NCBI GenBank assembly: GCA_018650645.1
Contig: JABIFP010000025.1
Span: forward strand, 7,976 to 71,975
DNA length: 64,000 nucleotides
Direction: 5' to 3'
From: Candidatus Magasanikiibacteriota bacterium
GTDB lineage: Bacteria > Patescibacteriota > Patescibacteriia > Magasanikbacterales > UBA922
Numbering within the stretch: position 1 is the first letter of the stretch; every line of letters starts with the position of its first letter. A program made the position numbers and the translations under genes. Shown piece after piece: positions 14,539-40,158 of this stretch. The notes under the pieces were generated by a model. The model saw only the letters and a list, made by a program, of their open reading frames with translations. It did no database searches and was not told the DNA's origin.

Positions 14539-14593
14539 AGGGATACTTCTCTGCAGCTGGCACACGCAAGCTGCATAATAATTTTCTCTTTAT

Positions 14594-15286: not shown

Positions 15287-15303
15287 TAATTAATAGCACT
15301 CGT

Positions 15304-15558
15304 ATGAAAAAAGTTACTATCTACACTAAACAATCATGTCCGTACTGTGTCCATGCTAAAGAATTGCTTCAAAGCATTGGCGCTGAGTATGAAGAAATTG
15401 ATGTGCTGCAGCACCCAGAGAAGCGAGCTGAGGCGGCAGAAAAATATAACTGGATGAGCGTACCCATGATTCTTATTGGTGAAGAATTTATTGGTGGCTA
15501 CGATGACATGGCAGCACTTCACCAAAAAGGCGAACTTATGCCAAAACTTGCTGACTAA
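15304..15558 (+). CDS. grxC: glutaredoxin
   Basis: An 84-aa thioredoxin fold with a CPYC active site (KQSCPYCVHAK) and the GGYDD motif. Confidence 0.85.
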   Translation: MKKVTIYTKQSCPYCVHAKELLQSIGAEYEEIDVLQHPEKRAEAAEKYNWMSVPMILIGEEFIGGYDDMAALHQKGELMPKLAD

Positions 15559-15566
15559 TTTTGTAT

Positions 15567-16868
15567 ATGATTACCCTATTAACCAAACAATTACACAAAG
15601 TGCAAGCAGCTCACGGTCTTTCTAAAAAGGAACTTGCTGTATCAAAAAAAATATTGCAAAAACATATTGCAGGAGCACTTGCGCGTGACCAACACTTTCA
15701 TAACATTGTAGATGATACTGAAACGGTTCGTATTATTGAGCAGTATGCAGCAAGTGTGAAAGGAAGTTATGACCATGTTGTCCTTTGCGGCATTGGTGGA
15801 TCTGCACTTGGTCCGATTTGTCTGAAAGAAGCGCTCACTCACCTGTACGCTGCTGAGCAAAAAGAGAGAAATCACCCAATACTTCATGTTATTGATAATG
15901 TAGACCCTGCAATGATCGCAGAGGTTGAAAGCATTCTGAATTTCAAGCGAACACTGTTCCTCTTTATTTCAAAATCTGGAAATACTGCAGAAGTACTCAG
16001 CATGTATTTATATTTCAAAGCACGCTGTATTAAAGAAGGAGTTCCCTTTTCTGATCATGCACTCATGGTTACGCATGCAGGAAAAGGAAAACTCTATGAA
16101 CTTGGAACAAAAGACGAGCTACCTATTATTGAACATGGGCCAGTTGGAGGTCGATTTGCGGTGCTCAGCTCTGTTGGACTACTACCAGCTGCGCTCCTTG
16201 GCATAAATATCAAAAAACTTCTCAAGGGAGCAAAGCAAATGCGAGACAAATTCCTCTCAATAGATCCAAAACAAAATCTCCCCTTCCAAATGGCCAACAT
16301 GCAGTATTTGCTCACAAAAAAAGGCAAACATATTCATGTCATGATGCCGTATTCTCAAAAACTTTTCCGATTTGCAGACTGGTACAGACAACTTCTTGCT
16401 GAAAGTATTGGAAAAGAAGTAAATGATAAGGGAAAAAAAGTGAATATTGGAATTACCCCCGTCAAAGCGCTTGGAACAACCGATCAACACTCACAATCAC
16501 AACTCTATAATGAAGGACCGAACAATAAATTCATCATGCTTGTGCATGCAAAGTCACTCCATAAGACTATCCGAATTCCTTCATTATATAAAGGTGACAA
16601 ATCGCTTGCCTACTTGCAAGGAGCAACCTTTAATCAGCTTATTGATGCAGAAAGAGAAGGTACAGCTGATTCGTATACGGCTTATAACAAACCAAACATA
16701 ACTATTCAAATAGATAAAGTAGATGAGGTGCATCTTGGTGGACTGTTCATGCTATTTGAAGGAGCTACCGCATTCCTTGGGGAGCTCTTTGGCATCAATG
16801 CCTATAACCAACCAGGGGTTGAACTTGCAAAAAAACGCACAGTAACGTATTTAAAGAAAAAGAGATAA
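15567..16868 (+). CDS. pgi: glucose-6-phosphate isomerase
   Basis: A SIS-domain motif VLCGIGGSALG, ISKSGNTAE, and full-length PGI architecture. ATG at 15567. Confidence 0.85.
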   Translation: MITLLTKQLHKVQAAHGLSKKELAVSKKILQKHIAGALARDQHFHNIVDDTETVRIIEQYAASVKGSYDHVVLCGIGGSALGPICLKEALTHLYAAEQKERNHPILHVIDNVDPAMIAEVESILNFKRTLFLFISKSGNTAEVLSMYLYFKARCIKEGVPFSDHALMVTHAGKGKLYELGTKDELPIIEHGPVGGRFAVLSSVGLLPAALLGINIKKLLKGAKQMRDKFLSIDPKQNLPFQMANMQYLLTKKGKHIHVMMPYSQKLFRFADWYRQLLAESIGKEVNDKGKKVNIGITPVKALGTTDQHSQSQLYNEGPNNKFIMLVHAKSLHKTIRIPSLYKGDKSLAYLQGATFNQLIDAEREGTADSYTAYNKPNITIQIDKVDEVHLGGLFMLFEGATAFLGELFGINAYNQPGVELAKKRTVTYLKKKR

Positions 16869-16872
16869 GCAT

Positions 16873-18285
16873 ATGCAGCAATCACTATCGCAGTTTGGAA
16901 TGATTGGCCTTGGTGTCATGGGAGCAGCGCTCGCAAAAAATGTAGAGAGCCGCGGGTATCAGGTCAGTGTCTATAACAGAAGCAAAGATAAGCGAGATGC
17001 CTTCATGAAAACTTATGGTGATGGTAATTTTGTATGCACAGAATCGATTGAAAAATTTACAGCTTCACTTGAACGACCCAGAAAATTCATGCTGCTAGTG
17101 CAAGCTGGAAAAGCTGTTGATGCCGTCATTGAATCACTTCTCCCCCATCTAGAAGAAGGAGACATTATTATTGATGGAGGAAATTCTTTTTACAAAGATA
17201 CACAGCGAAGAGAACTCGCTTTAAAAGAAAAAGGTATTCATTTTGTAGGCTGCGGTGTAAGTGGCGGAGAAGAAGGAGCGCTAAAAGGGCCAAGTATCAT
17301 GCCTGGCGGATCGGCTGAATCATGGAAACAAATTCAACCAATTTTAGAAGCAATTGCTGCAAAAGATTTTTCTGGAGGCCCCTGTGTTACCCATGTAGGT
17401 GAAAACGGTGCAGGACATTACGTAAAAATGGTGCACAACGGTATTGAATACGGCATCATGCAACTCATTGCTGAATCCTACGACATTTTGCGAACAGGAT
17501 ACGGCATGCAAGCGTCAGAAATTGCCGATGTGTTTGCTGGATTCACCAAAGGAAAACTCAGTTCATACTTATTTGATATCGCAGTACCAGTACTACGAAA
17601 ACAAGATGACCAAGACGGTAAAACCGGAGCACTTATTGATGCAATTTTAGATCAAGCAAGCAATAAAGGAACCGGTAAATGGACATCCGTTGATGCACTG
17701 GACCGCGGGCAAGCAATTCCTACCATTACGGCAGCTGTGTACGCAAGATACACCTCCACAAATAAAGATGTGCGGACAGCCCTCTCTTCAGTATATCCAA
17801 AATCAGAATATTCACCAGCACTTGATCAAAGCGACATGATAGCAGCGCTTGAAGATGCGCTTTATGCTGGAGTACTCAGCTGTTTTGCGCAAGGATATGA
17901 TCTTATTGTGCAAGTAGCAGAAGCAGAAAAGTGGGATATCGATCTTGCTGAGGTTTCTAGAATATGGGAAGGCGGTTGTATCATTAGAGCAACACTGCTT
18001 TCTGAATTCCAAGAAGGATTCAAGGAATCTTCAGCACACCTGCTGAGTCACTCACACATTGTTGAAAAAATCACTACATCTGTACCACACCTGCGAGCGC
18101 TTATTGCACAAACTGTGCAGCTTGGTATTGCCCTTCCAGCATTTTATAGTGCCCTTGGGTATATCGATGCAATGACGACAGCAAACAGTAGTGCAAACAT
18201 GATTCAAGGACTCCGAGATTATTTTGGAGCACATACATACAAACGCAATGATATGGAGGGAACCTTCCATTCTCATTGGGATTAA
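16873..18285 (+). CDS. gnd: 6-phosphogluconate dehydrogenase, decarboxylating
   Basis: An N-terminal GMIGLGVMG NADP-binding motif, a conserved 6PGD core and C-terminal domain, 470 aa. Confidence 0.95.
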   Translation: MQQSLSQFGMIGLGVMGAALAKNVESRGYQVSVYNRSKDKRDAFMKTYGDGNFVCTESIEKFTASLERPRKFMLLVQAGKAVDAVIESLLPHLEEGDIIIDGGNSFYKDTQRRELALKEKGIHFVGCGVSGGEEGALKGPSIMPGGSAESWKQIQPILEAIAAKDFSGGPCVTHVGENGAGHYVKMVHNGIEYGIMQLIAESYDILRTGYGMQASEIADVFAGFTKGKLSSYLFDIAVPVLRKQDDQDGKTGALIDAILDQASNKGTGKWTSVDALDRGQAIPTITAAVYARYTSTNKDVRTALSSVYPKSEYSPALDQSDMIAALEDALYAGVLSCFAQGYDLIVQVAEAEKWDIDLAEVSRIWEGGCIIRATLLSEFQEGFKESSAHLLSHSHIVEKITTSVPHLRALIAQTVQLGIALPAFYSALGYIDAMTTANSSANMIQGLRDYFGAHTYKRNDMEGTFHSHWD

Positions 18286-18295
18286 TCATATACCT

Positions 18296-19747
18296 ATGGT
18301 AGAAACCATTGAGACCTCATTCATCATTTCCATTTTCGGCGCATCTGGAGATTTGGCAAAGATAAAAATCTTTCCGTCACTTTATGCTCTCGCAAAACAA
18401 AACAGACTGCCCAAAGATTACTTAATGGTTGGTTTTGCGCGTACACAGATGTCGCATGATGAATTCAAAAAAACCGTGCGGCAAGCGGTAAAAAAATATT
18501 CTAAATTGTCAGTCGATGAAACCATTCTTAATAAAATGCTAAAGCATGTATTTTATTTTTCAGGACAATATAGTTCTTTAGAAGATTTTGTATCGTATCG
18601 TCAATTCTTAAAAGATACATTTACTTCTCACTGCGGAGCGCCACTGCGATTACAAAAAATACCGCATATCGCTTATTTTTCCATTCCTCCTGTTGTGTTT
18701 AAGGATGTGGTAAAAAATCTTGGTGAATCAAGAACAAATAAGCATGAAGACCTGCGTTTGGTAATAGAAAAACCATTTGGTGATTGTGAAAAAAGTGCAA
18801 AAGCACTCTTTCACTTTATTTCTCAGCATTTTCACGAAGACCAATTCTACCTCCTGGATCATTATCTTGGAAAAGCTTCCGTCCAAAGTATCTTAAACAT
18901 GCGACAGAGTAATCGTGTACTGAATAATATTATTAGAGGCTCTGAAATAGCAAATATTCAGATTACCGCAGCTGAATCGGTTGGTGTTGGTCACCGAATT
19001 GGGTATTTTGAACAAGTTGGTATTGTAAAAGACATTATCCAATCACATTTATTGCAGGTACTAGCACTGGTAACTATGAATATTCCAAATCATAGAAATG
19101 CAGCGAGTTTGCAAAGAGAAAAAGGAAATATTTTGGAGGCTATTGACTGCCCATGTGATGCCCCAAATGTTGTGTTAGGCCAATACGAGTCTTATAAAAA
19201 GGCCAAAGGTGTGGCACCAAAGAGTAGAACAGAAACGTATGCTGCCGTTCGCCTGTTTCTTGACTCACAGCAATGGTATAACGTGCCTATATATTTGCGC
19301 ACAGGAAAACGCCTGAGTAAAAAACATACGTACGCAGTAATTGAACTTAAAAAATTCCCTTTTCAAGGAAAAGATGAAGCGCCAAATAGAATAGTTATTG
19401 AATTTCACCCAGAACCGCGCATTGGGATTTCACTGATTAATTTTCAGGAAGGTGCGCAGCGCTATCAAACGGTAAGCACCTCAGCATCAATCGCCTGTAA
19501 TATTGAAGGATGTCTTCCTGAACACGGAGAACTCCTCCTTGATGTACTCAAAAAGGAACGTATGCACTTCCTTAGCTTTAACGAGATACTCGCGTCATGG
19601 AAAATTGTAGATCGGATTACGCAAAACATGAAGGAAAAGAAAATTAAGCTCAATATCTATAAAGATGGAAGCCGCGGACCTGAATCGCAACATTCTCTAC
19701 CTAAAAAAGATGGATACACCTGGTTTGATCCAAATGAAATTAGATAA
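18296..19747 (+). CDS. zwf: glucose-6-phosphate 1-dehydrogenase
   Basis: IFGASGDLAKIKIFPSLY NADP motif, an EKPFG motif and a DHYLGK motif. ATG at 18296, in the track ORF frame. Confidence 0.9.
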   Translation: MVETIETSFIISIFGASGDLAKIKIFPSLYALAKQNRLPKDYLMVGFARTQMSHDEFKKTVRQAVKKYSKLSVDETILNKMLKHVFYFSGQYSSLEDFVSYRQFLKDTFTSHCGAPLRLQKIPHIAYFSIPPVVFKDVVKNLGESRTNKHEDLRLVIEKPFGDCEKSAKALFHFISQHFHEDQFYLLDHYLGKASVQSILNMRQSNRVLNNIIRGSEIANIQITAAESVGVGHRIGYFEQVGIVKDIIQSHLLQVLALVTMNIPNHRNAASLQREKGNILEAIDCPCDAPNVVLGQYESYKKAKGVAPKSRTETYAAVRLFLDSQQWYNVPIYLRTGKRLSKKHTYAVIELKKFPFQGKDEAPNRIVIEFHPEPRIGISLINFQEGAQRYQTVSTSASIACNIEGCLPEHGELLLDVLKKERMHFLSFNEILASWKIVDRITQNMKEKKIKLNIYKDGSRGPESQHSLPKKDGYTWFDPNEIR

Positions 19748-19748
19748 T

Positions 19749-20423
19749 ATGACACACGTGCAGCAATTTGAATCAATGGATGAGCTAGTTTCTGCCCTCT
19801 TACCCGCGTTTAAAGCTGATAAGGAACTTCATATAGGTCTTTCGGGTGGAAACTCCCCTGTGGCACTCTACAAAGCTATCGCACAATTTCAGACATCACA
19901 TCAATCACAATTTTTTTATCAGGTTGATGAGAGATACGTACCAGCAGAGAGTGATGAATCAAATCAACGAATGATCCGGGAAACACTTATTGACCCAATC
20001 CGCCATAATTTAGGTGGATTCTTCTCTATAGACACATCCCTTCCGATTAATGAAGCAGTATACAAATATTCACAGGCCATTGAAACGATTCCTAATCAAT
20101 CATTTGATATTATTGTGCTAGGGCTTGGAACTGATGGTCACACAGCATCACTTTTTAGAGGCGATACAACACTTGGTGACTCTAATGCGTTGGTTCGCCA
20201 TACCATTAACCCTACGGCGCCAAACCCTCCAGTAAAAGATCGAATCACCTTAAGCTTGCATACTATTATGCGTGCAAAAAAAATAGTGCTACTGGTCACT
20301 AGTGCAGCTAAATGGCAACTAGTTGAATCCATGTTAAACGACCAGCCCAATACCACCACCCTACCAATCCACGCACTCCTTCCTCATCCAAATCTAGAGA
20401 TTATGTATGCCAAAACCGTATAG
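19749..20423 (+). CDS. pgl: 6-phosphogluconolactonase
   Basis: GLSGGNSP, LGLGTDGHTASLF and a 1-nt gap after the zwf stop. ATG at 19749. Confidence 0.8.
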   Translation: MTHVQQFESMDELVSALLPAFKADKELHIGLSGGNSPVALYKAIAQFQTSHQSQFFYQVDERYVPAESDESNQRMIRETLIDPIRHNLGGFFSIDTSLPINEAVYKYSQAIETIPNQSFDIIVLGLGTDGHTASLFRGDTTLGDSNALVRHTINPTAPNPPVKDRITLSLHTIMRAKKIVLLVTSAAKWQLVESMLNDQPNTTTLPIHALLPHPNLEIMYAKTV

Positions 20424-21057
20424 TTCAACAGACACACCCAGCCACAAAAGGCTCATAATTTTAGATTTTGATCATACTGTTTTTAATACCACCGCGTTTG
20501 TTGCCGCACAGCAGCAGCAATTAGAAAAAAAATTTAATATTGATAAAGAAACATTCACATCTGTAAGAAAATCCGTGAAAGACTGCTGCACCGTAATTGA
20601 TATCGATACGTTTGTGGCCTCACTACCACATGAAGATAAATCCGGACTCCATGCCGCAATTCATGAAACTGCTAAGCGTGCAGCCGAGTGGATTTTTTCT
20701 GATGTAGAAGCGTTTTTGTCAGCACACGCATCGCATTTTGACATACTTATTCAGACTCATGGCGATAAAGAACTCCAGACTGAAAAAATAATGCATGCAA
20801 ACCTGCCTGATGATATCCGTTTTCTCATTTCTACTAAACCAAAGGAAAAAGTCATTGCGGATTTTGTTCATCAATATGAACACATCTATATAATAGAGGA
20901 TAAACAAACTAATATTGATGCCATAAAGCAGACATTTCCAGAAGTGACCGCCTATTTCATTGCAAGAAAGGAAGACCATCCATATAAAGATGATTGCCCC
21001 GTCTGCAAAGGAGAAGATCATGCAATTGAATCACTGAACTTCACCATTCCACAATAA
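20407..21057 (+). CDS. HAD-superfamily hydrolase
   Basis: Motif I DFDHT (ILDFDHTVF); overlaps the pgl stop. Confidence 0.6.
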   Translation: MPKPYSSTDTPSHKRLIILDFDHTVFNTTAFVAAQQQQLEKKFNIDKETFTSVRKSVKDCCTVIDIDTFVASLPHEDKSGLHAAIHETAKRAAEWIFSDVEAFLSAHASHFDILIQTHGDKELQTEKIMHANLPDDIRFLISTKPKEKVIADFVHQYEHIYIIEDKQTNIDAIKQTFPEVTAYFIARKEDHPYKDDCPVCKGEDHAIESLNFTIPQ

Positions 21058-21059: not shown

Positions 21060-21091
21060 CAAAAAAATCGACTGCATAAGTCGATTTTTTA
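21060..21091. terminator. bidirectional rho-independent terminator
   Basis: aaaaaaatcgact gcata agtcgatttttt lies between the HAD gene (+) and the pilus-gene operon (-). Confidence 0.75.
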
Positions 21092-21490
21092 TAGTGATGA
21101 AACGATTTGCCAGTTTGTAATGCTCACACCACTGCTTACATCCGCAGTAATTTGTAACCGCCTATATGTACTGTTTACATTTCCTTCCACATTAAGCTGC
21201 CTACTATTGCCACCAAGATCCGTCACAACCACTGAGCACGTTCCTCCGTTTAATGAAACATTTTCTGTCCCAGTATAGCCAGTATCGAGTCTGAGTTGCT
21301 CCATTCCCTCTTCCGCACACGCATCAGCAAGAGCAATAAGTGTTCCTTCATCATTCCAAGCCCCCGTCATGCGGGAAGCATCAATACTGAGTAGCGCAAG
21401 CGAAACCGTTACAGCAACACCAACACCCGCAAGAGCAAATACTGCCAGCAGTGTCATGTATCCTTTTTTATTTAACGCTTTAACACGCAT
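21089..21490 (-). CDS. type IV pilus minor pilin / PilX-like protein (putative)
   Basis: The N-terminus MRVKALNKKGYMTLLAVFALAGVGVAV resembles the PilX_N/pseudopilin hydrophobic segment. It is the last gene of the pilus operon. The start ATG at 21490 is 1 nt after the upstream stop. Confidence 0.45.
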   Translation of the reverse strand: MRVKALNKKGYMTLLAVFALAGVGVAVTVSLALLSIDASRMTGAWNDEGTLIALADACAEEGMEQLRLDTGYTGTENVSLNGGTCSVVVTDLGGNSRQLNVEGNVNSTYRRLQITADVSSGVSITNWQIVSSL

Positions 21491-21491
21491 A

Positions 21492-21986
21492 TTATCTGTG
21501 TGTAATGGTTGAAGTAAAATCTTGCGTTGCAAACTGCTGTGGTCCATCTTCTATTGATTCCCTCTCTAACGTAAATGTCATTTCTGTAGAGCTGCTTCCC
21601 CAATCTGAAATGTCTGTGGCAATAAATGAAGTAGCAATGAGTCTTCCTGTTAGTAGCGGTACCGTGTTCCCAGCAACTTCCTTTTGTACAGAATTCCCAA
21701 CAAGCGAAAATGTTGTTGTCACATTGTCATACGAGACAACTTGCAGTACAGATGTTGCCACTCCGCCTGTAGGCACCGTAATTACTGATGCTCCATGAAC
21801 TGCATTACGCATTTCGTTCATTAAATTTCCTCCCTGAAAAGATACATCACTCACCACCTCGTGTTTTCCTCTGGACTGTAAAATCTGGATGAACATACTA
21901 CTAAGCGCAAGCAAAAATACTCCAGAAATTCCAATATAGAGAATGAGTTCTACCAATGTAAATCCTTTTTTTGAAGTAGTATTCAT
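21492..21986 (-). CDS. type IV pilin-like protein (prepilin N-terminal methylation motif)
   Basis: KKGFTLVELILYIGI is a class III signal with Glu at +5. Confidence 0.8.
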   Translation of the reverse strand: MNTTSKKGFTLVELILYIGISGVFLLALSSMFIQILQSRGKHEVVSDVSFQGGNLMNEMRNAVHGASVITVPTGGVATSVLQVVSYDNVTTTFSLVGNSVQKEVAGNTVPLLTGRLIATSFIATDISDWGSSSTEMTFTLERESIEDGPQQFATQDFTSTITHR

Positions 21987-21987
21987 A

Positions 21988-24921
21988 CTATTGGTAATTA
22001 ATCGTCACATCTTGAAGGACCGGTGTGTGATCTCCATCTGAACTTAATGTGGCACGGTATTGCAGCCACTGCGATTGGTTCAAATCGGTATCAAGTAATT
22101 GCAAGGCATTGTCACTAAACGTTGTTGCAGCTCCTCCACTTCCATACCATGCAGACCAAACTCCAGGGCTTCCACCACTATCGTCAGCAGTTCGTAACTC
22201 AATTTCTATGTCACAGGCTGGTGCGCAACTCGGAATCGATTCGTTCCATGAAATCATCTGCACAGCAGCATTTTTTCCCATATCAAATGCAGAACTTGTT
22301 AGTGTTCCAGATACTTCATATCCACCAGCTACCTGCTCTCCATTTCCCCACTCAATAGACACACTATCTAGCTGTACTTGTACCGTTCCATCACTTTCCA
22401 AATTTGCGCGGAACAAAAATTGCCCACTAGAGGTTGGGAATGATGAAAAATTATCGTGAATATCTGTGGCTATTGAATAATCAGACGCCCCAGCTGCGGC
22501 CCAGGCTGCACCAGTCCAGTAATACCACGATGTACCATTATTATCTGATACCTGATAGTAAATTTCACCTGTATTTTTTGTTGCTACTTCTGTAAAGCCA
22601 ACATAGTTTCCTAATCCGCTGACAGCTAAAAATGATGACGGGGTAATTGTTGGTACCGTATCAGGATATGACGCAGCTCCAGCAGAAACGCCAATTGTAG
22701 TCACATACCCATCATTCCCCGTTCCACTATATACAATGGCAATCATACTATTAGAAAGAATATATGCCATTGGATCAATTCCCTGCGTAGCATCAAACTC
22801 CTCTGAATCGATAAATGCCGCAGGTAGTGTTCCGTTATCTTCAATTGTGAGTAGTGCCAAAATACCATTATTAGTAGCATCCTCATACACTAAGGCATAA
22901 GTGGTTCCATCAAACGGGTACAGCTTCATCTCATATGCGCCACTCGTCTCAAACTCCCAAGAATCTACAATCGCATTAGTAATATCTCCCGCGGCATCAA
23001 TTTCAACTGTAGTTATAGTTCCATCATTTCCGGCCCCTTCATATGAAATTGCATAAATATCGCCACTAATTGGAATAAGATTAGGCGTATTAGCTGAGCT
23101 TGTATCAAATTCTAATGAATCGATAATACTATTCGTAATATTTCCACTTGTATCGATATCAACGGTTACTAGCCAGCCATCACTTCCAGCCCCTTGATAC
23201 GCAATTGCATATATGTCTCCTGAAATTGCTGTAATTGATGGATATTTTCCACTTGCGGTATCATATTCATATGAATCTACCTCTGTGATGGCTCCCGCAC
23301 CATTAACCGAAAATGTTTGTATAAATCCATCGCTCTTGTTTCCTTCATAAACGACTGCAAATACTCCATTGGCCAGCTCAATAAGAGAAGAAAATCGTCC
23401 ACTCTTATTATCAAATTCTGTTGAATCAATCACTGCCCCAATATTCCCAGCAGCATCAATATCTACGGTGACTGCATACCCGTCATTTTTATCTCCCGAA
23501 TAGGTGATCAAGTAGTTGTCTCCGGAAACATGTATTATCTCTACCTCTTTTCCCTGCTTTGTATCAAATTCATAAGTATCAATCACAGCACCACCAATAT
23601 CTCCCGCAGCGTCAACTGATACTGTTTTAATAAAACCATCGTTTCCTGATCCTGTGTATGCAATCGCAAAAATGTCATTTCCCAATGACAAAACATATGG
23701 CATGGTGGTGTTACTTGTATCAAATTCAAATGTTTCTGTTACTGCACCATTGATATCTGAGCCGCCACCACCTGCTGATACGAGTTGTGCCTGACCACCA
23801 GTCACTTCAATATCCGCTGCATTAAAGGTGTAACTTGTTGATGCAGAAAATGGCCACTGATACTGATTTCCACATCGAATACTGATCTCATCAAGAAGCA
23901 CATCATGCGTTCCGTCACTGGAAAGGAATGCCTGAAAAGAAATCCGCCCACTTGAAGTTGTAAATGACCCGATATTTGTATTTATATCTGCCGCTGTATT
24001 ATAGTCTGCTCCGCCAGCGGCTCCCCAAGCAGCTCCCGTCCAATATTCCCAGTTGGATCCATTATCACTTGAAATTTGATAATAAATTTCTCCGGCATTT
24101 TTTGTAGCAGTTTCAGAAAACTGCGTCCACTCATCTACATCTCCAGTTACAATAAAATCTACTAATGGTGCAATTGCAGGCTCATCATTTGGATAATTTG
24201 TGTCCCCTGGCCCAGCAGGAATAAGTACAGCTTCCCCTCCAGTTATTTCAATATCATCACTATCAAATGAGTAGCTTGTTGAAGCCGTAAAGCTCCATGA
24301 TTTTGTTCCACACTGTTCATTTAGTCGATTTAATTGCAATTGCCCTCCGGTAGTTACATCTACATCTCCTGAATCGCTATCATACGCTGCCGTGTCAGCC
24401 CAAATTGCTTGCCCGTCGCCGCTAGACCAATCTGTTTGCGTCCAATTGTCTGACTGCCAATTTGTGAGTAGTACTGATCTGTTTACTGCAAGCGATCTTC
24501 CTGCAATTGTCGTTCTTGTCACCGCAATCGTAGCCATGTGTGATGACATATCAACCGTTCCCGCAGGGCAGGTCACAATCACATCGGTTCCATCTCTACA
24601 TACATCAGTAAACGTAATTGTCCTTGTAAATTCTCCGATTGTTTCACTTGTTCCCTCTCCGCTTAGCGTCCACGCTCCTGTTGAAGAAGTGACCGCAGAC
24701 TGAGAATACGTAAATTCATTTACCGCCCTATCACGAATTGCTCTTACAGCCTCAACGCCTTCTTGAGCGAGATGTTCAGCAGTGATTCTATGCTTAGCCA
24801 CAATACTCGATTCATGCGCAAGGCTAATTGTGCTTATAAACATAAGCGCAAAGATAGCAAAAAGAGCCACAGCGAGTATGATCTCCATTATGCTAAATCC
24901 TTCCTTGCGCAACCTTTGCAT
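21988..24921 (-). CDS. giant pilin-like protein (977 aa): prepilin-type N-terminus, ~7-blade beta-propeller repeat region and three Asp-box-containing modules. Putative pilus-tip adhesin.
   Basis: N-terminus KEGFSIMEIILAVALFAIFAL. About seven tandem ~50-aa repeats with the pattern (I/V)DSxEFDT..G.....ISGD.YAI.Y.G.GNDG...TV.ID..G. Three ~80-aa modules with S-x-D-x-G-x-x-W (e.g. ISSDNGSNWEYWTGAAW). Confidence 0.85.
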   Translation of the reverse strand: MQRLRKEGFSIMEIILAVALFAIFALMFISTISLAHESSIVAKHRITAEHLAQEGVEAVRAIRDRAVNEFTYSQSAVTSSTGAWTLSGEGTSETIGEFTRTITFTDVCRDGTDVIVTCPAGTVDMSSHMATIAVTRTTIAGRSLAVNRSVLLTNWQSDNWTQTDWSSGDGQAIWADTAAYDSDSGDVDVTTGGQLQLNRLNEQCGTKSWSFTASTSYSFDSDDIEITGGEAVLIPAGPGDTNYPNDEPAIAPLVDFIVTGDVDEWTQFSETATKNAGEIYYQISSDNGSNWEYWTGAAWGAAGGADYNTAADINTNIGSFTTSSGRISFQAFLSSDGTHDVLLDEISIRCGNQYQWPFSASTSYTFNAADIEVTGGQAQLVSAGGGGSDINGAVTETFEFDTSNTTMPYVLSLGNDIFAIAYTGSGNDGFIKTVSVDAAGDIGGAVIDTYEFDTKQGKEVEIIHVSGDNYLITYSGDKNDGYAVTVDIDAAGNIGAVIDSTEFDNKSGRFSSLIELANGVFAVVYEGNKSDGFIQTFSVNGAGAITEVDSYEYDTASGKYPSITAISGDIYAIAYQGAGSDGWLVTVDIDTSGNITNSIIDSLEFDTSSANTPNLIPISGDIYAISYEGAGNDGTITTVEIDAAGDITNAIVDSWEFETSGAYEMKLYPFDGTTYALVYEDATNNGILALLTIEDNGTLPAAFIDSEEFDATQGIDPMAYILSNSMIAIVYSGTGNDGYVTTIGVSAGAASYPDTVPTITPSSFLAVSGLGNYVGFTEVATKNTGEIYYQVSDNNGTSWYYWTGAAWAAAGASDYSIATDIHDNFSSFPTSSGQFLFRANLESDGTVQVQLDSVSIEWGNGEQVAGGYEVSGTLTSSAFDMGKNAAVQMISWNESIPSCAPACDIEIELRTADDSGGSPGVWSAWYGSGGAATTFSDNALQLLDTDLNQSQWLQYRATLSSDGDHTPVLQDVTINYQ
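22700..23790 (-). repeat. coding tandem repeats (~7 x ~150 nt) encoding propeller-blade-like units inside the giant pilin gene
   Basis: Periodicity seen in the translated protein (aa ~380-740). The repeats have diverged at nucleotide level. Confidence 0.55.
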
Positions 24922-24922
24922 A

Positions 24923-25354
24923 TTACTGGTAGCTTATCGTTGAACTTGATATTAATACGGTTTGCGGATCATGTCCTGCTTTGGTTATACGAATTGTTCC
25001 ACTTACTGAAGACGCTCCTGTACTTTTACTAAAAATCACGTCTGACTCTCCGGTAATAATGAGCTGTTCATCTAATATAATAATTTCATCATATGAAGCA
25101 TCTCGTAATGCGTAATCATTTCCTCTAAAAAGTGTCATATTTGTATCAGCCATATGCACCCCCCAATCGGTATCGTATTTCATGGTGTGTGCGTATACCT
25201 TTGCAAGCCGCAATGTAGAAACAACATGTTGCCGCGCTACAATAGTAGAGCTTTTTTCTTGTATTGATGTAAAAAGAGGTAACGTAAATGCCGAAACAAG
25301 GGCAATGATAGCAATCACCAGAATGAGTTCTACTAATGTAAACCCTTTTTTCAT
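24923..25354 (-). CDS. type IV pilin-like protein (prepilin N-terminal motif)
   Basis: KKGFTLVELILVIAIIALVSA. It ends 1 nt before the start of the giant pilin-like gene. Confidence 0.8.
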   Translation of the reverse strand: MKKGFTLVELILVIAIIALVSAFTLPLFTSIQEKSSTIVARQHVVSTLRLAKVYAHTMKYDTDWGVHMADTNMTLFRGNDYALRDASYDEIIILDEQLIITGESDVIFSKSTGASSVSGTIRITKAGHDPQTVLISSSTISYQ

Positions 25355-25366
25355 ATGTACCCGGTA

Positions 25367-26617
25367 TTACCCAACACTTCCAACCAGTGTATAGATTGGG
25401 AGAATGATTCCAATCGCTAACCCCGCAACAATAAGTGAAACAAAGAGAAGTAATAACGGTTCAAGTACAACCGAAATATTTTTTGCAGAGACTTCTGTTC
25501 TTTCTTCATACCGCTGACCAATTTGTACCAAAATAGAAGATAATTTTCCGGTTCGTTCACCCGTAACAATAAGCTGCTGCACTGCGCCAGGAATAAGAAA
25601 GGATGATTTCTTTTTGTTTTCTGCAAAGGCATCTGAAAATGACTGTCCTCTTCCTATTTGCATCTCTAAATCGGCATATAGCCTTCCGTATTGCCGTACA
25701 AGTGTGGCTTCAGAGAGTGATTTAAGTGCTTGCAAAATTGGTAACCCTGCACCGAGCAGCGTTCCCAAAATAAATCCAAATCGAGCGAGTTCTACTTCTT
25801 GAATCAATTTTTTTAGTAGCGGTGTATGTAAAATGATCCACTGTCCCATGAATTTTGTTTTTCTGCTCAGGAAAAGTACATAAACAGTTGTAATAATCGA
25901 AGCGACAATAGTTGGGATGAGCCAGTGACCGTACGCTTTTACCACCATACCTATCCACATGAGTACGCGAGTAATCCATGGTAAATCAACATCTAAAGAA
26001 ACAAACAAGTTGGTAATTTTAGGAAGAATGAACCATGTTAATCCAAGACCAATGATTGATGCCAGAGACAATACCAATACAGGATACATCATGGCACTAC
26101 GGAGCCTATCTTTAAATGCTCGTTCCTTTTCTTGCTGCTGCAATACAATAATTAAATTCTCTCCGAGGCGTCCTGATTGCTCCCCCACATCAATGAGCGT
26201 AATGACATGATCTTTAAAGAGCTTCGTTTTCCTCAGCGCTTCAGTCAAAGAAGACCCATCCTGAATATCATCTCTCATTTGCATCAGCAAGGCCTTCATA
26301 GAAGCCCCTTTTAGCTCAGAATGGACCGCTTCAAGTGCGGCAACAACATCCATTCCAGAAGAAAGTAGCAGTGCTAGTTGATCAATAACAAAATCTCTTT
26401 CTTTTCCAACAAAAAGGTACCCAAACCGAGAATGAAAAGATTGCTTTTCAGCCTTTGGTGCAGGTTCTTTTTTTGCGCGAGGTGCCGGAGAGGGTGCAGT
26501 CTTTTCTTTTTTTGGTTTAGAAACCTTTTTTGCGGCAGGCTTCTTTTTTTCTTGCGTATGTGCAAGTACCTCTGCTGCCTCATGCGCATTTGTTGTTTTT
26601 TTCTTTGCAGGAGGCAT
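25367..26617 (-). CDS. pilC: type IV pilus assembly platform protein PilC (GspF family) with a K/P/A-rich N-terminal extension
   Basis: Two GspF-like repeats with three TM segments. The N-terminal ~60 aa is low-complexity (PAKKKTTNAHEAAE...KKEPAPKAEK). Confidence 0.9.
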   Translation of the reverse strand: MPPAKKKTTNAHEAAEVLAHTQEKKKPAAKKVSKPKKEKTAPSPAPRAKKEPAPKAEKQSFHSRFGYLFVGKERDFVIDQLALLLSSGMDVVAALEAVHSELKGASMKALLMQMRDDIQDGSSLTEALRKTKLFKDHVITLIDVGEQSGRLGENLIIVLQQQEKERAFKDRLRSAMMYPVLVLSLASIIGLGLTWFILPKITNLFVSLDVDLPWITRVLMWIGMVVKAYGHWLIPTIVASIITTVYVLFLSRKTKFMGQWIILHTPLLKKLIQEVELARFGFILGTLLGAGLPILQALKSLSEATLVRQYGRLYADLEMQIGRGQSFSDAFAENKKKSSFLIPGAVQQLIVTGERTGKLSSILVQIGQRYEERTEVSAKNISVVLEPLLLLFVSLIVAGLAIGIILPIYTLVGSVG

Positions 26618-26620
26618 AGA

Positions 26621-28300
26621 TTATGATTTTTTCTTTTTACTTTTTGTTCGAACTGGCTTCACAGGTGGGGTAGCTATACGCATAAGTTCTTGCAAGGTGG
26701 TGACACCCTGCGTTACTTTTGAAAGACCATCTTCAAACAGTGTATGCGCACCCTCTTTCATTGCAAGTGCCCAAATTTCTTGTGCTGAAGGATTCGTCAT
26801 AACGAGTTCCCTCATCGCAGATGTCATTGAAATGAATTCAAAAATCGCAACTCGCCCTTTATAACCTGTTCCCCCGCAATTACCACAACCAGTTCCATGA
26901 TAAAGTGTTATTTTCTTTTTTCCGAGTAGCGGCTTTACATTAGCTGGAATTTGTTTTACTGCTTGAGCGGCAGGAATCGATGTTCTACAACTTTCGCAAA
27001 TCTTTCTTACCAGTCGCTGCGCCATAATCAATTCAAGAGTGGAAGCAAGTAAAAATGGTTCTGCTCCCATATCAAGAAGACGCGGAATGGCCGTTGCTGC
27101 ATCGTTTGCATGGAATGTAGAGAACAAAAGATGACCCGTAAGTGCCGCATTCACTGCAATTTCTACTGTTTCTGTATCACGAATTTCTCCTACTAAAATC
27201 ACATCCGGATCCTGCCTAACAATTGATCTGAGTCCTTTAGAAAACGTAATCCCCTTTTCTTCATTAACCTGAATCTGATTAAGCCCAGAAATGCGATACT
27301 CAACAGGATCTTCAATAGTTGTGATGTTTACATCTGGGTTATTTAAAATGCGCAACAGTGAATACAGTGTTGTTGATTTTCCAGACCCCGTTGGCCCCAC
27401 AACAAGCACCATTCCAAATGGTTTTTTAGAAGCGGCCATGAGCAGTTCCTGATCATGATCATCTAATCCCAAATCTCCTAACCCGAATCCTTCAATATAA
27501 CTAGAGAGTAAACGAATAACAATCTTTTCTCCTGAAATTACTGGCGCAATAGAGACACGCATATCAATATGCACGCGCTCGTTTTTAAATCTAATTGCTC
27601 CATCTTGCGTAGCAAAGTGTTCATCAATTCTAAGATGCGCCATGACTTTAATCAGGTTCACCATGTGCTGATAATTCACTGTCGGAATTCTTCCTGCTTC
27701 TTGCAACACCCCATCAACCCTGAAACGAACAATCGCTTCGTCTTCATGTGGTTCAAAGTGAATGTCAGATGATTTATGCACTAAAGCATCTTCAAAAATG
27801 GCATCAATAATCGTTGGTGCAACGTGTTTTTCTTTTTCTAAAATTTTCTGAAAGCGCGTATTCAGTGTTTGCCTATACTGATTGAGTACTTTATCAATAT
27901 CTTCAGTAAGACCATATGCCACAATCGCTTTTTTCTTCTTTGCTAAAGATTTTGTAAGCGTTTTCAGTGATGCATTTTTAGGCGTATCAGTTGCAAATAC
28001 AATCTCCTTGTCTGTTTCTTTATACGCAATCAAGCGATGCTTTTTTGCTGAAGCAGCAGGAACAAGTGCCCGTAAATCGGCACCAGGCATGTTTGAATTG
28101 ATGTCTGCATAGGTTAGCTTAAACGATTCAGCAAGTGCCTGACCAATCAAATCAGCTGACACTTCCCCACTTTCTTTCAGCATGGCTAACACGGTCTTTT
28201 TACTTTTCTTTGCTTTCGCTTGTGCCGCCTTAACATCAGAAGCATCAACATACGCTCCATCGATGAGCGCGGTTAATATATTTGCTTCGCTGACAGGCAT
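26621..28300 (-). CDS. pilB: type IV pilus assembly ATPase PilB (GspE family)
   Basis: Walker A GPTGSGKST, Asp/His boxes, and a tetracysteine CESC...CGNCGGTGYKGR. Confidence 0.95.
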   Translation of the reverse strand: MPVSEANILTALIDGAYVDASDVKAAQAKAKKSKKTVLAMLKESGEVSADLIGQALAESFKLTYADINSNMPGADLRALVPAASAKKHRLIAYKETDKEIVFATDTPKNASLKTLTKSLAKKKKAIVAYGLTEDIDKVLNQYRQTLNTRFQKILEKEKHVAPTIIDAIFEDALVHKSSDIHFEPHEDEAIVRFRVDGVLQEAGRIPTVNYQHMVNLIKVMAHLRIDEHFATQDGAIRFKNERVHIDMRVSIAPVISGEKIVIRLLSSYIEGFGLGDLGLDDHDQELLMAASKKPFGMVLVVGPTGSGKSTTLYSLLRILNNPDVNITTIEDPVEYRISGLNQIQVNEEKGITFSKGLRSIVRQDPDVILVGEIRDTETVEIAVNAALTGHLLFSTFHANDAATAIPRLLDMGAEPFLLASTLELIMAQRLVRKICESCRTSIPAAQAVKQIPANVKPLLGKKKITLYHGTGCGNCGGTGYKGRVAIFEFISMTSAMRELVMTNPSAQEIWALAMKEGAHTLFEDGLSKVTQGVTTLQELMRIATPPVKPVRTKSKKKKS

Positions 28301-28314
28301 AGCGGTTGGTTAGA

Positions 28315-28686
28315 CTATTTCTTAAGTGCTTTTTCTACATGTACGATTACTTCCGTAATTGGCGTGTTAGATTTTACAAAATAATCTACAGCTCCCAATT
28401 TTTTACACTTATCTTGATCTTCTGTTTGGCTCAAATTTGTAGACACAATAACGGGTGTTTTGTCACCACGTTTTTGTTTTTCTTCTAGTACGCCAAATCC
28501 ATCTACTTTCGGCATCATTAAATCAAGCAATACTAAATCGAATTTTCCATTTTTTAAATATACCAAAGCTTCTTCTCCGTCGTATGCATTCTCTACTGCA
28601 TACCCAGCTTTTGATAGCTTCAGCGCGAGCGCTTTTGCCATTGGTTTTTCGTCTTCAGCAATAAGGATTTTCTTTTTTGCGGCCAT
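28315..28686 (-). CDS. single-domain response regulator (CheY/PilH-like receiver) leading the pilus operon
   Basis: ILIAEDE, LVLLDLMMPKVDG, VIVSTNLS and DYFVKS receiver signatures in a 123-aa product. Confidence 0.85.
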   Translation of the reverse strand: MAAKKKILIAEDEKPMAKALALKLSKAGYAVENAYDGEEALVYLKNGKFDLVLLDLMMPKVDGFGVLEEKQKRGDKTPVIVSTNLSQTEDQDKCKKLGAVDYFVKSNTPITEVIVHVEKALKK

Positions 28687-28760
28687 AACAAAAAGGTCAA
28701 GAAAAAAATAGTTCTCTTTAGGTGCAGTATAGCATAAGAGTTTCTCTCAACCAAGCATTT

Positions 28761-29825
28761 TTATTCAAAAATCACATCACCATTTTGCGGCACAACTTCT
28801 ATCCAAATAGTTCCGCCTTGAATATGCATCGGTTGCCCATCTTTTGCTGTGAAAACAGTTGGTGTATCCTTTGCCGTTTTACTCCACGTTCCCTCTTGTA
28901 TGTTCCCTGCTGCAAAGATATATGCGTCGCCAGTACCAATGGTTTCCATGCCTAACCTTCCTTTATTATCTAACACTTGTGTTTGTACTTTTTGCACCAC
29001 AATGGTATCTGCTTCATACCGCGGCCCAGACGCATCAATATGTGGCCGCGAGAATTGATCACGCTCATACTTGTTGGTGCTACTCACGTAATACCAATCT
29101 GGTGCGTAAATTCCTTGAGAAAAAATAATTTCAAGATGTGTTATGCACTCTTCTGTACACGGTTCACTTGCCTGCACACTCCACCGTGGTTGCAGCTCTG
29201 ATATTTCTTTTGGTGCGTATTTTTCATGTGCACTCCTAAAAAGTTCTGCAGAAGTATATGCATTGTGCGGGGCAAATCGCCCCTGATCTCTCCAAAAATA
29301 CCATCCTCTAGAAAACTCGTTCATATCAAAGACATCTTCCGCTGCAATTCTCTCTAGCGCATCAGGCGAGCCGCCAACATGCATGTACATTGTCCCCGGG
29401 TATTCAGCAAGCCAGTCTAAATAGTATGGACGAGCAGACCGAATAGGGCCAATCTTTTTTACATCAGTATCAAGCGGAAAAAGTGCCATAAACCGTGGGA
29501 TATTCCCTTCTACCGGCGCTTCATACACCACAGCTGCCTTATTTAATCCAGAAAGTGGATTTGCCTCAATATGATTTTCAATCATGACTGCAACAAGTGG
29601 TTGTTCTTGATGCTCTCCATCATCCAAACACACACCATCAAACGACCTTGTCACCGCGCAATCACCATTATGTGCATATTGATCTTCTACCTGCACTATT
29701 TCTCCCGGCACAGGCGCACTGCCGCGTGGAATAAAAAACCATCCGGCAAGGATAAGTGCTACAGCTATGGTAATTACTGAAATATGCTGCATTGTTTTGG
29801 GTAAATCGATGTTGTATTTTGGCAT
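28761..29825 (-). CDS. DUF3048 (YerB-like) family membrane-anchored/lipoprotein
   Basis: PLVAVMIENH...SGL..A.VVYEAPVEG...RFMALF...IGPIRSARPYY...GGSP...APHNAYTS matches the DUF3048 N- and C-domain pattern. An N-terminal TM follows the probable start MPKYN (29825). Confidence 0.7.
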   Translation of the reverse strand: MPKYNIDLPKTMQHISVITIAVALILAGWFFIPRGSAPVPGEIVQVEDQYAHNGDCAVTRSFDGVCLDDGEHQEQPLVAVMIENHIEANPLSGLNKAAVVYEAPVEGNIPRFMALFPLDTDVKKIGPIRSARPYYLDWLAEYPGTMYMHVGGSPDALERIAAEDVFDMNEFSRGWYFWRDQGRFAPHNAYTSAELFRSAHEKYAPKEISELQPRWSVQASEPCTEECITHLEIIFSQGIYAPDWYYVSSTNKYERDQFSRPHIDASGPRYEADTIVVQKVQTQVLDNKGRLGMETIGTGDAYIFAAGNIQEGTWSKTAKDTPTVFTAKDGQPMHIQGGTIWIEVVPQNGDVIFE

Positions 29826-29973
29826 ACACGAGGTTCTTTTTGAAATATACGATGACTCAAGTATACCTTGGCTGGGCAAAAAAAAGAACTCGCGCATATT
29901 GACAGAGAGCAAAAGCTATGCTACGTTGCGTGAAGAACACTAACTGCCGCAACGCGGCTAAGGGAGGACGGCC

Positions 29974-30579
29974 ATGGGAAGGCCAAAGAAGAAGGATGCG
30001 TGGTGCAAGACCCGGTACGGGCGGATTGGCCGCCTGATGGCCGATCCGGAAACTACTCATGACCAGAGACTGTTCCTGTTGCAGCTCGAAGAGTACCTGT
30101 CGATGAACGTCGATCAGGCACTCGATATCCTCGAGTGGCGCGGTGAAGCGCACGTCATCACCTCGCGACTTCACGGCATGGTCGACGGCATCGACCCGAT
30201 CGCTGCCAGGCATGGGCTGAAGCTGCCGTTCACTGCGGAGGGCGAGGGCGTGAACACCACCTGGACGTGGATCGAGTGGCAGATGATCACGCCGATGGAC
30301 CTGTTCTGGCGGAGAACGGGGAAAGGGAACGCCCCTCTACTCCTTCAGCTACAGGAGGGAGGCAACCCCGAACAAATTGCGTGCGCGCTCTACAAATATC
30401 CCAAAGGTACCAAAATGGTGGGTTGGACACCGACTGATCTGCGCGAAGCTGCCGCAGATGCAATCGAGGCACTTTTGCAGACGGCCGAACGTGCGGGTCT
30501 CGGCAACGTCATTCAGACATCGACTGCCGACGGCGAACCCTACTACCGCTGGGTCGGCCCCCAGATCCCGCCCGCCTAG
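29974..30579 (+). CDS. hypothetical protein encoded in a GC-rich island
   Basis: A 201-aa ORF in a ~60% GC segment. A strong RBS taagggaggacggccATG precedes it. No recognisable domain. Confidence 0.5.
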   Translation: MGRPKKKDAWCKTRYGRIGRLMADPETTHDQRLFLLQLEEYLSMNVDQALDILEWRGEAHVITSRLHGMVDGIDPIAARHGLKLPFTAEGEGVNTTWTWIEWQMITPMDLFWRRTGKGNAPLLLQLQEGGNPEQIACALYKYPKGTKMVGWTPTDLREAAADAIEALLQTAERAGLGNVIQTSTADGEPYYRWVGPQIPPA

Positions 30580-37999: not shown

Positions 38000-38108
38000 A
38001 TATATGTATAGTACCCTGTGCATTGACTGTTGTCAACACTGTCTTGACAGACTACTTATTTAACTCTATTTAGCTATTTTACATAAGGAAGATACTGTCT
38101 ACACCATA

Positions 38109-38137
38109 TTGACAAAATGCTTTTTCTATGCTATAGA
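38109..38137 (+). promoter_or_regulatory. putative sigma70-type promoter (TTGACA-N17-TATAGA)
   Basis: catATTGACAaaat, then a 17-nt spacer, then TATAGA. The same catattgacaaaat motif recurs at 46380. Confidence 0.35.
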
Positions 38138-38169
38138 TAGTGTAGTTCTTTCACAAAGAAAGAGGTCCC

Positions 38170-40036: not shown

Positions 40037-40158
40037 GGCTTTCCTCCCTGTTGAGTCTCAAGAAAACATGTATTCTGATATGCTATAGATATCAGATTTG
40101 TGCGGTTTCGTCAATGGGAGGGTTGAAAAAAAGCATGTTTTACGCTACACTCATGCAT

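Follow-up and report, generated by a model that had tools for sequence, protein, structure and literature searches.

Is the small receiver protein encoded directly upstream of pilB in a Patescibacteria pilus operon the output of a pathway that acts on the pilus? This question is raised by a 64,000-nucleotide stretch of DNA, hereafter the window, from Candidatus Magasanikiibacteriota bacterium (assembly GCA_018650645.1, contig JABIFP010000025.1), in which eight consecutive minus-strand open reading frames (ORFs) span 21089-29912. An earlier note, made from the letters of the window, had read them as one type IV pilus transcript led by a DUF3048 lipoprotein and a PilH-like receiver. All eight ORFs were confirmed at the coordinates and in the minus-strand order that it had given: DUF3048, a receiver of 123 amino acids (aa; REC123), PilB, PilC, a minor pilin, a 977-aa pilin, another minor pilin and a ComGG/PilX-type pilin lacking Glu5 (E5), followed by a terminator hairpin. 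The description as a type IV pilus assembly operon was upheld, an ATPase, a platform protein and prepilins all being identified by Pfam and NCBIfam. The explanation that we favor, to which we give about an even chance (roughly 50%, a joint figure for the whole of it), is that the locus is a conserved assembly-and-priming operon of the Patescibacteria (Candidate Phyla Radiation, CPR) composed of REC123, PilB, PilC and four minor pilins, in which a two-component pathway dedicated to the pilus would have REC123 as its output. For the CPR, the pilus machinery itself is ordinary. The features of the locus, in the order of transcription, are as follows:

28761-29825, minus strand: DUF3048 protein, 354 aa from ATG 29825, with an N-terminal membrane anchor (DUF3048 N- and C-domains, E 2e-40 and ~4e-24)
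28687-28760, minus strand: DUF3048-REC spacer, 74 nucleotides (nt), with a promoter-like element and a hairpin/U-tract
28315-28686, minus strand: REC123, 123-aa single-domain receiver and first gene of the conserved module (Pfam Response_reg only, 8e-24)
26621-28300, minus strand: PilB-type extension ATPase, 559 aa (T2SSE 4e-121; MshEN 1.8e-8)
25367-26617, minus strand: PilC platform protein, 416 aa (T2SSF in two stretches, 9e-47)
24923-25354, minus strand: minor pilin in slot 1, 143 aa, GspH/ComGD/FimU-like, leader MKKG↓FTLVE, N_methyl motif
21988-24921, minus strand: giant modular pilin in slot 2, 977 aa, no family match, prepilin leader MQRLRKEG↓FSIMEI
22681-23760, minus strand: seven-bladed beta-propeller of the giant pilin, residues 388-747; 28 strands, 7 x 4, by AlphaFold2 (AF2) at a predicted local distance difference test score (pLDDT) >90
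21492-21986, minus strand: minor pilin in slot 3, 164 aa, leader KKG↓FTLVE, N_methyl motif
21089-21490, minus strand: E5-less pilin-like protein in slot 4, ~133 aa from Met20, KKG↓YMTLL, in the ComGG/PilX/GspK-type position
21062-21090, minus strand: intrinsic-terminator-like hairpin with a 12-bp stem and a T-run, at the operon end and common to the convergent gene 20407-21057

From REC123 to the last pilin the junctions measure 14, 3, 12, 1, 1 and 1 nt when the last gene is counted from Met20 at 21490; with its longest ORF (21089-21547) the last two genes overlap by 56 nt. The spacing of 1-15 nt proposed for the whole row is thus correct from REC123 through the last pilin (1-14 nt) and incorrect for the DUF3048-REC junction, which is 74 nt long. 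A scan for consensus promoters and terminators revealed no convincing internal terminator, the sole strong hairpin being that at 21062-21090, and promoter-like sites were rarer than in shuffled sequences. An Rfam scan of the whole window found no RNA family, so neither a riboswitch nor a small RNA in the DUF3048-REC spacer, and a tRNA scan found none. This gene order is found again in 80 related loci, indicating that it is not due to chance.

The receiver, pilB and the linked kinases

REC123 carries an acidic pocket (E11-D12-E13), a phospho-acceptor D55, T83 and K105, that is, the acidic pocket, Asp, Thr/Ser and Lys by which receiver domains are recognized. In an alignment of 50 orthologue sequences D12, D55, K105, G63, N84 and G98 were invariant, and the family shares the signature V(S/T)NLxQxED at the start of helix 4. 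An annotated response regulator of Candidatus Magasanikbacteria (P0096) is 100% identical to REC123. The best 120 database homologues were all receiver-only proteins of 118-154 aa, and every taxon-bearing source name among them was Patescibacteria or a CPR phylum. The nearest NCBIfam and PDB matches were receivers of the OmpR/PhoB family (RpaB, VanR, YycF and DrrD), with CheY entries lower. Scans of the window with Pfam and/or NCBIfam (here and below on likely-gene ORFs of at least 110 aa, with shorter and overlapping alternative ORFs left out) found no CheA, CheW or methyl-accepting chemotaxis protein (MCP). Both in the window and in relatives, the linked kinases belong to the HisKA/HATPase type. 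The name "PilH-like" is therefore apt as an analogy only: it fits neither the sequence, for which OmpR/PhoB-type receivers are nearest, nor the kinase type, which is HisKA rather than Chp/CheA.

We then compared the 80 related loci together with three loci from reverse look-ups (83 in all), 75 of which have sequence upstream of pilB. The best PilB relatives among GTDB species representatives are ~56% identical. Most are titled as metagenome-assembled genomes (MAGs) of Patescibacteria or CPR, and a minority bear the automated labels "uncultured Gammaproteobacteria", "Ignavibacteriaceae" or plain "bacterium". The 80 loci hardly deviate from the order PilB, PilC, pilin, variable pilin, pilin, PilX-like, and the module recurs in Doudna-, Uhr-, Falkow-, Dojka-, Berkel-, Gottesman-, Morani-, Gracili- and Saccharibacteria-labelled MAGs. 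A receiver orthologue stands directly 5' of pilB on the same strand in 49/75 loci, overlapping pilB by 4 nt in 11 of the 49. These pilB-adjacent receivers matched REC123 at 1e-25 to 1e-46, with two weak outliers (L034 and L052), and other receivers of the same loci were mostly far weaker (~1e-5 to 1e-23); judged by these scores, the adjacent receivers are one orthologous group. Reverse look-ups starting from three homologues of REC123 led in all three cases to the series receiver, T2SSE, T2SSF, four to five pilins, CHASE4/PAS/dCache kinase and receiver. The receiver-only protein noted directly upstream of pilB is thus real and a conserved partner of this gene.

The limits of the ancestral unit could be read from the flanks. 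Clustering of the flanking genes of the 80 loci showed conservation beyond the core only for the upstream receiver, for one or two small pilins after the PilX-like gene and for sensor histidine kinases; no DNA-binding partner was conserved in the locus. The upstream neighbor of the receiver is divergent in 16/45 loci and, where it has the same strand, the distance has a median of 62 nt, indicating that the receiver is the first gene of the ancestral unit. The small pilins directly 3' of the PilX-like gene (~150 aa, 56 loci) are obvious candidates for the major pilin. In the relatives the module extends past the minor pilins to a major pilin, a sensor histidine kinase and another receiver. Beside an adjacent receiver, the N-terminal 45 residues of PilB show relatively better conservation (ratio to core identity 0.41 vs 0.26, p = 2e-4, not phylogeny-corrected), which is a weak pointer. 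In one further locus (L085, 1-8999) a protein of >3295 aa without family match ends 1 nt before the pilB-linked receiver.

Genes corresponding to this distal part are present in the window as a separate same-strand cluster (3677-9624), which lies 11.5 kb downstream of where the operon ends:

9217-9624, minus strand: REC135, a second single-domain receiver of 135 aa (Pfam)
7548-8864, minus strand: CHASE protein, 438 aa, without a kinase domain (Pfam)
6221-7543, minus strand: dCache-like sensor protein, 440 aa, without a kinase domain (Pfam)
3677-6151, minus strand: HK824, an 824-aa sensor histidine kinase with an extracytoplasmic Cache-like sensor, HAMP, PAS, HisKA and HATPase (Pfam)

Orthologues of HK824 (E down to 1e-124) were found in the related loci, and kinases of this type abut the operon in at least 25 of them. 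They lie immediately 5' of the receiver in L011, L024, L045, L048, L052 and L060, or just after the pilins in L002, L006, L020, L021, L023, L035, L036, L043, L046, L056, L059 and more. The orthologue of REC135 in these relatives is the receiver that comes after the kinase, in the distal part of the cluster (1e-29 to 4e-38 in L006, L020, L023, L034, L043, L046 and L056). An HK824-type kinase accompanies 25/45 receiver-positive loci vs 3/20 receiver-negative loci (Fisher p = 0.003, not phylogeny-corrected). The REC123 orthologue of L027 has been relocated behind the kinase, and the Saccharibacteria-type loci L061-L077 possess neither receiver nor kinase. HK824 is, as far as orthology can tell, the probable cognate kinase of REC123, and an ancestral super-cluster appears to have been split in this genome.

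The dCache-like and CHASE proteins sit between REC135 and HK824, and related proteins adjoin the pilus operon in L004, L016, L039 and other loci. The C-terminal ends of the two are similar, each a charged coiled-coil (...ERELRMIQLKKENQDLK and ...GRELKMIELKKRLSDFKK), and the proteins may be co-sensors or what is left of duplicated kinases. Plus-strand housekeeping genes (PrmC, NDH-2, YceI, transaldolase, PGI, 6PGDH, G6PD and 6PGL) fill the interval between the kinase cluster and the operon. The window contains a near-complete pentose-phosphate set (13678-20423 and 62022-63133, with transaldolase, PGI, 6PGDH, G6PD and 6PGL, and RpiB and Rpe further on), of which the block at 13678-20423 separates the pilus operon from the probable kinase cluster.

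Pilus motor, minor pilins and the rest of the window

PilB possesses an N-terminal MshEN/GSPII-like domain, the Walker A motif GPTGSGKST and, as read from the translation, the CxxC...CxxC zinc (tetracysteine) motif typical of extension ATPases. The cyclic di-GMP (c-di-GMP) motif of MshEN domains, RLGxx(L/V/I)(L/V/I)xxG(L/V/I)(L/V/I), was not evident in PilB upon inspection by eye. The best NCBIfam match was TIGR02538 PilB at 490 bits (cut-off 675), followed by GspE at 465 (630) and ComGA at 245 (300); the GspF, PilC and ComGB matches of the platform protein were likewise all below equivalog cut-offs (ComGB 127 vs 240). With all NCBIfam scores below these cut-offs, the operon belongs to a divergent lineage that is no equivalog of any named system. 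PilC begins with a Lys-, Pro- and Ala-rich extension of ~60 aa (PAKKKTT...KKEPAPKAEKQ) and PilB has a Lys-rich end (TKSKKKKS); both tails are basic and probably disordered. In L086 and L087 PilC carries a C-terminal SH3_3 domain.

Three of the four pilin ORFs contain the class III signal G↓F(T/S)xxE, and the fourth has a hydrophobic segment without E5. The slot-1 pilin matched ComGD (1.3e-7) and GspH (1.8e-7) weakly, and its position is kept in 80 loci. For the orthologues of slot 3 the N_methyl motif was found in 22/22 and was the only Pfam match. An alignment of 22 slot-4 orthologues showed a G-Y/F-hydrophobic N-terminus without Glu5 (position +5 is Leu, Met, Ile or Val) and invariant C58 and C85. 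Pfam ComGG was matched weakly by 8/22 of them (best E 0.0012) and PilX_N by 1/22 (0.033), with no match for the protein of the window, and a profile search of the PDB with the alignment found nothing. The sole match in a homologue search with the slot-4 protein was a strain variant (P0216) that is identical except for a 13-residue deletion (residues 107-119, STYRRLQITADVS), which points to micro-variation in a putative tip component. Taken together, the four pilins are most likely a minor-pilin priming or tip set.

The slot-2 pilin had been called a "giant pilin-propeller", a description that structure prediction upheld. An AF2 model built on an alignment of 39 homologues (mean pLDDT 90.5) consists of an alpha1 helix (residues 11-65), a pilin head (77-162), beta domains (195-356), a propeller (388-747) of seven four-stranded blades and two beta-sandwiches (758-860 and 871-976). 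The propeller is made of seven repeats of ~52 aa with the motif FxFDT...GD.YAI.Y.G.GNDG. Foldseek placed first, among PDB structures, the Photorhabdus seven-bladed lectins PLL and PHL (E 5e-13, target template modelling score 0.74-0.79, ~10% identity); a sequence search of the PDB gave nothing meaningful. The protein has 95 homologues, many with LamG-type modules, and every taxon-bearing source name among them is Patescibacteria or a CPR phylum. The slot-2 pilin varies between 129 and 1378 aa across 61 loci. The giant pilin is probably a tip adhesin, for which a lectin-like function is a reasonable reading of the predicted fold.

Several components of a complete pilus are not found beside these genes. 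PilT, PilD (Peptidase_A24), PilM/N/O/P and the PilQ secretin had no match in the window, and a motif scan together with a phmmer search with PilB, covering stop-to-stop ORFs of at least 40 aa in the window, found no further prepilin or second PilB-like ATPase. The statement that pilM/N/O/Q and pilT are missing from the window therefore holds. Nor was PilT or a second PilB-like ATPase found within 10 kb in any of the 80 related loci. No major pilin was found in the window, where a hidden Markov model built from the relatives matches only the three minor pilins. The major pilin, the prepilin peptidase, any PilT and any PilM/N/O are presumably encoded outside the window. A candidate second pilus cluster at 52951-60899 (ORFs of 415, 192, 552 and 999 aa) was rejected, the four products being a protein of unidentified family, RuvA, leucyl aminopeptidase (M17) and a class I tRNA synthetase.

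Two other regions of the window attracted attention. The GC content of 38001-42000 is 0.53-0.55 vs ~0.41 elsewhere, and this region encodes a 346-aa helix-turn-helix protein (aMBF1/DicA-like), an FGE-sulfatase-like fragment, chorismate mutase and two ORFs without family match; it may be a horizontally acquired island. At 44607-45470 (plus strand) lies the gene of a 287-aa protein with a feature unusual for bacteria, a Kazal-type serine-protease-inhibitor domain (E 1e-5).

Operon start, proposed mechanism and rival explanations

The 5' end of the operon depends on the status of DUF3048. Its ORF, taken as 28761-29912, starts at TTG 29912, which is an over-extension; the likely start is ATG 29825, and the resulting 354-aa call is used in four public assemblies. 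The N-terminus (MPKYNIDLPKTMQHISVITIAVALILAGWFFIPRG) is a hydrophobic anchor without a lipobox cysteine: the pattern [LVI][ASTVI][GAS]C was not found at the end of the signal peptide, the hydrophobic segment ends ...LILAGWFFIPRG, and the only earlier Cys precedes this segment. The spacer between DUF3048 and REC123 contains, as read from the sequence, TTGGTT (28754-28749), a spacing of 17 nt and an extended -10 element TGcTATACT (-10 at 28731-28726). This promoter was not listed by the consensus scan because its -35 box matches only 3/6 positions. The spacer RNA can also fold into a hairpin of -18.4 kcal/mol (z = -2.4) that ends in UUUUUGUU just before the receiver AUG, and a transcript from the spacer promoter would be without the 5' half of the hairpin stem. 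The spacer is probably the promoter of the operon and/or the terminator of the upstream gene. DUF3048 was absent from all 83 related pilus loci, indicating that it is a lineage-specific neighbor and not the operon head, and we treat it as a mere neighbor of the pilus genes. Divergent from it, a 201-aa ORF without Pfam or NCBIfam match (29974-30579, plus strand) lies in a GC-richer patch (~0.48 vs 0.41). An apparent variation of this ORF between 158 and 201 aa was rejected, as the sequence is identical and only the choice of start codon differs.

How might the receiver act on the pilus? Phosphorylation of REC123 is plausible because D12, D55 and K105 are invariant and because the operons of relatives have orthologous sensor kinases linked to them. 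The earlier proposal of phosphorylation-level control of pilus assembly is plausible to this extent, direct control of PilB being what we infer beyond it, and phosphorylation probably controls pilus extension. In the mechanism that we propose, a membrane sensor kinase of the HK824 type would phosphorylate D55 of REC123, which, having no output domain, would act by protein-protein contact. It would contact the motor, most likely PilB, and switch extension on or off upon external, possibly host-derived, ligands, while REC135 would provide a further output or act as a phosphate sink. The four minor pilins would form an initiation complex ending at the pilus tip, with the E5-less slot-4 protein capping the complex; the adhesin may recognize a ligand there. 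In Pseudomonas PilG and PilH influence the localisation of PilB, and PATAN-type response regulators reportedly interact with the type IV pilus motor in Synechocystis. With the kinase ColS as its input, the single-domain response regulator EmvR binds to PilB and represses the ATPase (PMC11973254).

Several observations weigh against this explanation. An adjacent receiver is missing in 26/75 loci, and 20/45 receiver-positive loci have no HK824-type kinase within ~10 kb. In the window the kinase lies 11.5 kb away behind opposite-strand genes, so orthology is what the HK824-REC123 pairing rests on here. The REC123-PilB link is drawn from genomic context, and adjacency could reflect co-expression only. 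Neither the co-occurrence statistics nor those of the PilB N-terminus are corrected for phylogeny. The assignment of the minor pilins to H/I/J/K positions is based on gene order and weak matches, with the ATPase, platform and pilin matches all below equivalog cut-offs. Lectin function of the propeller is suggested by fold resemblance only, at ~10% identity.

Some of these observations suit other explanations of the receiver. REC123 could belong to a pilus-linked pathway and not act on PilB, being instead a phosphate sink or shuttle for the kinase, a role proposed for PilH and CheY-type sinks, or having as its target PilC, a PilM-like protein, a PilT encoded elsewhere or a transcription factor that controls the major pilin. 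Two receiver-only proteins, REC123 and REC135, accompany kinases in relatives, a classic output-plus-sink layout, and REC123 resembles OmpR-family receivers, which normally dimerise. Moreover, according to a 2024 review of PilB cofactors, reports of a direct PilG/PilH-PilB interaction were lacking for P. aeruginosa (PMC11656802). However, of the two receivers REC123 is the one tied to pilB, and the 4-nt overlap that is frequent between the two genes in related loci is a sign of translational coupling and of stoichiometric co-production. The locus has no conserved DNA-binding partner, and EmvR provides a precedent for a receiver-only protein that regulates PilB directly. We regard a target other than PilB as rather unlikely. 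The adjacency of receiver and pilB might also be a frozen accident from a CPR ancestor that has no functional meaning, as the 26/75 loci without an adjacent receiver and the uncorrected statistics would allow. Yet the flanks are otherwise unconserved, the receiver has stayed attached across many phylum-level lineages, and it moves with the kinase (L027, L005) and is lost with it (L061-L077), which makes an accident very improbable.

The identity of the appendage and the extent of the transcript can be disputed in a similar way. The order ATPase-platform-pilins matches comGA-GG, slot 1 matches ComGD and the slot-4 orthologues weakly match ComGG; no PilT lies within 10 kb in the 80 loci, and comEC and dprA are common in CPR genomes (PMC9938205). 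These features would suit a comG-like competence pseudopilus for DNA uptake, or a short secretion pseudopilus, in place of a long pilus for adhesion or motility, with the receiver gating competence. By contrast, PilB keeps its MshEN/GSPII domain and scores 490 bits as PilB and 465 as GspE vs 245 as ComGA, where the cut-off of 300 is not reached. The 977-aa propeller pilin fits adhesion better, its TM7x analogue PilX2 being needed for host binding (PMC11623550). Competence and adhesion are not mutually exclusive, and a pseudopilus is in our view unlikely. A single eight-gene transcript led by a DUF3048 lipoprotein that works with the pilus, for example in its passage through the cell envelope, is in keeping with the common strand, with the DUF3048-REC arrangement retained in four same-species public assemblies (contigs L081-L084) and with the failure to find a canonical short-loop terminator in the 74-nt gap. 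It is opposed by the lack of a lipobox, by the absence of DUF3048 from 83/83 related loci and by the first place of the receiver in relatives. The gap itself, 74 vs 1-14 nt, holds the TTGGTT-17-TGcTATACT element and the -18.4 kcal/mol hairpin with its U-tract. Neither the lipoprotein designation nor the place of DUF3048 at the operon head could be upheld, and we consider such a transcript quite improbable.

Returning to a pathway from kinase through REC123 to the motor, a wider version can be entertained. Across much of the CPR, Cache/CHASE/PAS kinases may sense external ligands, perhaps from the host surface, and phosphorylate a receiver that is co-translated with PilB and gates it, with the second receiver as a sink, and this may be the main switch for host sensing and attachment. 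Such a circuit would be post-translational and distinct from Pil-Chp, from FimX/PilZ/c-di-GMP and from PilS-PilR. We offer this extension tentatively, as a possibility.

Comparison with known pili and biological meaning

Type IV pili in the CPR and propeller-bearing modular pilins are already known, and the operon is an ordinary member of this group. The closest system is that of Nanosynbacter lyticus TM7x (T4P-1 and T4P-2; Grossman et al. 2024, PMC11623550), a member of the same superphylum. Its loci share with the present one PilB and PilC, sets of ~5 pilins with minor pilins resembling type II secretion pseudopilins, a major pilin that may be in a separate locus, and a large minor pilin, PilX2, with a C-terminal beta-propeller that is needed for normal host binding. 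The giant pilin likewise combines a prepilin N-terminus with a beta-propeller module, but its propeller is internal and flanked by beta-sandwich domains. The TM7x loci also carry pilM/N/O, and locus 1 carries pilT and pilD by pilB/pilC, whereas this operon and its 80 relatives do not. The TM7x study is without mention of a response regulator, receiver or CheY (PMC11623550).

Two systems resemble the proposed control pathway. EmvR-ColS of Xanthomonas oryzae (PMC11973254) comprises a receiver-only protein with canonical Asp/Asp/Thr and input from a classical sensor kinase, and operates by the mechanism proposed here. However, emvR is an orphan not located beside pilB, the pathway is branched with the DNA-binding ColR, and contact with PilB is experimental for EmvR, whereas for REC123 we infer it. 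Pil-Chp of Pseudomonas aeruginosa also has two CheY-like single-domain receivers, PilG and PilH, that act on extension and polarity, one of them possibly as a phosphate sink; this recalls REC123 and REC135. It differs in using ChpA (CheA-type), encoded in a pilGHIJK-chpA cluster, PilJ (MCP) and CheW-like adaptors instead of HisKA/HATPase kinases with Cache/CHASE/PAS sensors. In addition, pilG and pilH are not adjacent to pilB, and REC123 is closest to OmpR/PhoB-type receivers.

The pilin genes can be compared with the FimU-PilVWX-PilY1, GspH-I-J-K and ComGD-GG sets, in which four minor-pilin genes follow one another, the last without Glu5; slot 1 matches GspH/ComGD, and the order agrees with the fimU-pilV-pilW-pilX and comGD-GG slots. 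Similarity to these sets beyond the N-terminal helix is negligible, and no outer-membrane components are found here. As in FimU-PilVWX-PilY1, a beta-propeller adhesin goes with the minor-pilin set, but here the propeller forms part of a pilin and not, as in PilY1, a protein of its own. The modular pilins of Streptococcus sanguinis (PilB with vWA, PilC with a lectin module; PMC8179133, PMC9934059) also place bulky adhesive or lectin modules on a pilin N-terminal module in a monoderm-type pilus. They differ in the type of module (propeller and beta-sandwiches here), in size, 977 aa being far larger, and in their unrelated lineage. The Photorhabdus PLL and PHL lectins, the best structural match to residues 388-747, have seven blades built from short sequence repeats, but with ~10% identity they are soluble lectins not fused to a pilin.

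In the searchable open-access literature we found no description of the coupling of receiver and pilB, of its sensor-kinase linkage or of the second receiver across the CPR. One study notes only an enrichment of CheY-like genes in sediment-attached ultra-small MAGs (PMC9938205). Of the means by which ultra-small CPR bacteria find and hold their hosts, type IV pili are the best supported, and the study of TM7x pili counts among its open questions how extension and retraction are regulated (PMC11623550). The present comparison offers three widely conserved candidates for this control: 1) the 123-aa receiver, tied by synteny to the motor gene; 2) a family of sensor kinases whose ligand-binding domains are extracellular; and 3) the second receiver. 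The slot-2 pilin, ranging from 129 to 1378 aa and carrying a lectin-like propeller here, is a candidate for what sets the host range. Should PilB be gated by the receiver, the Cache and CHASE domains could reveal what an episymbiont senses before it attaches.

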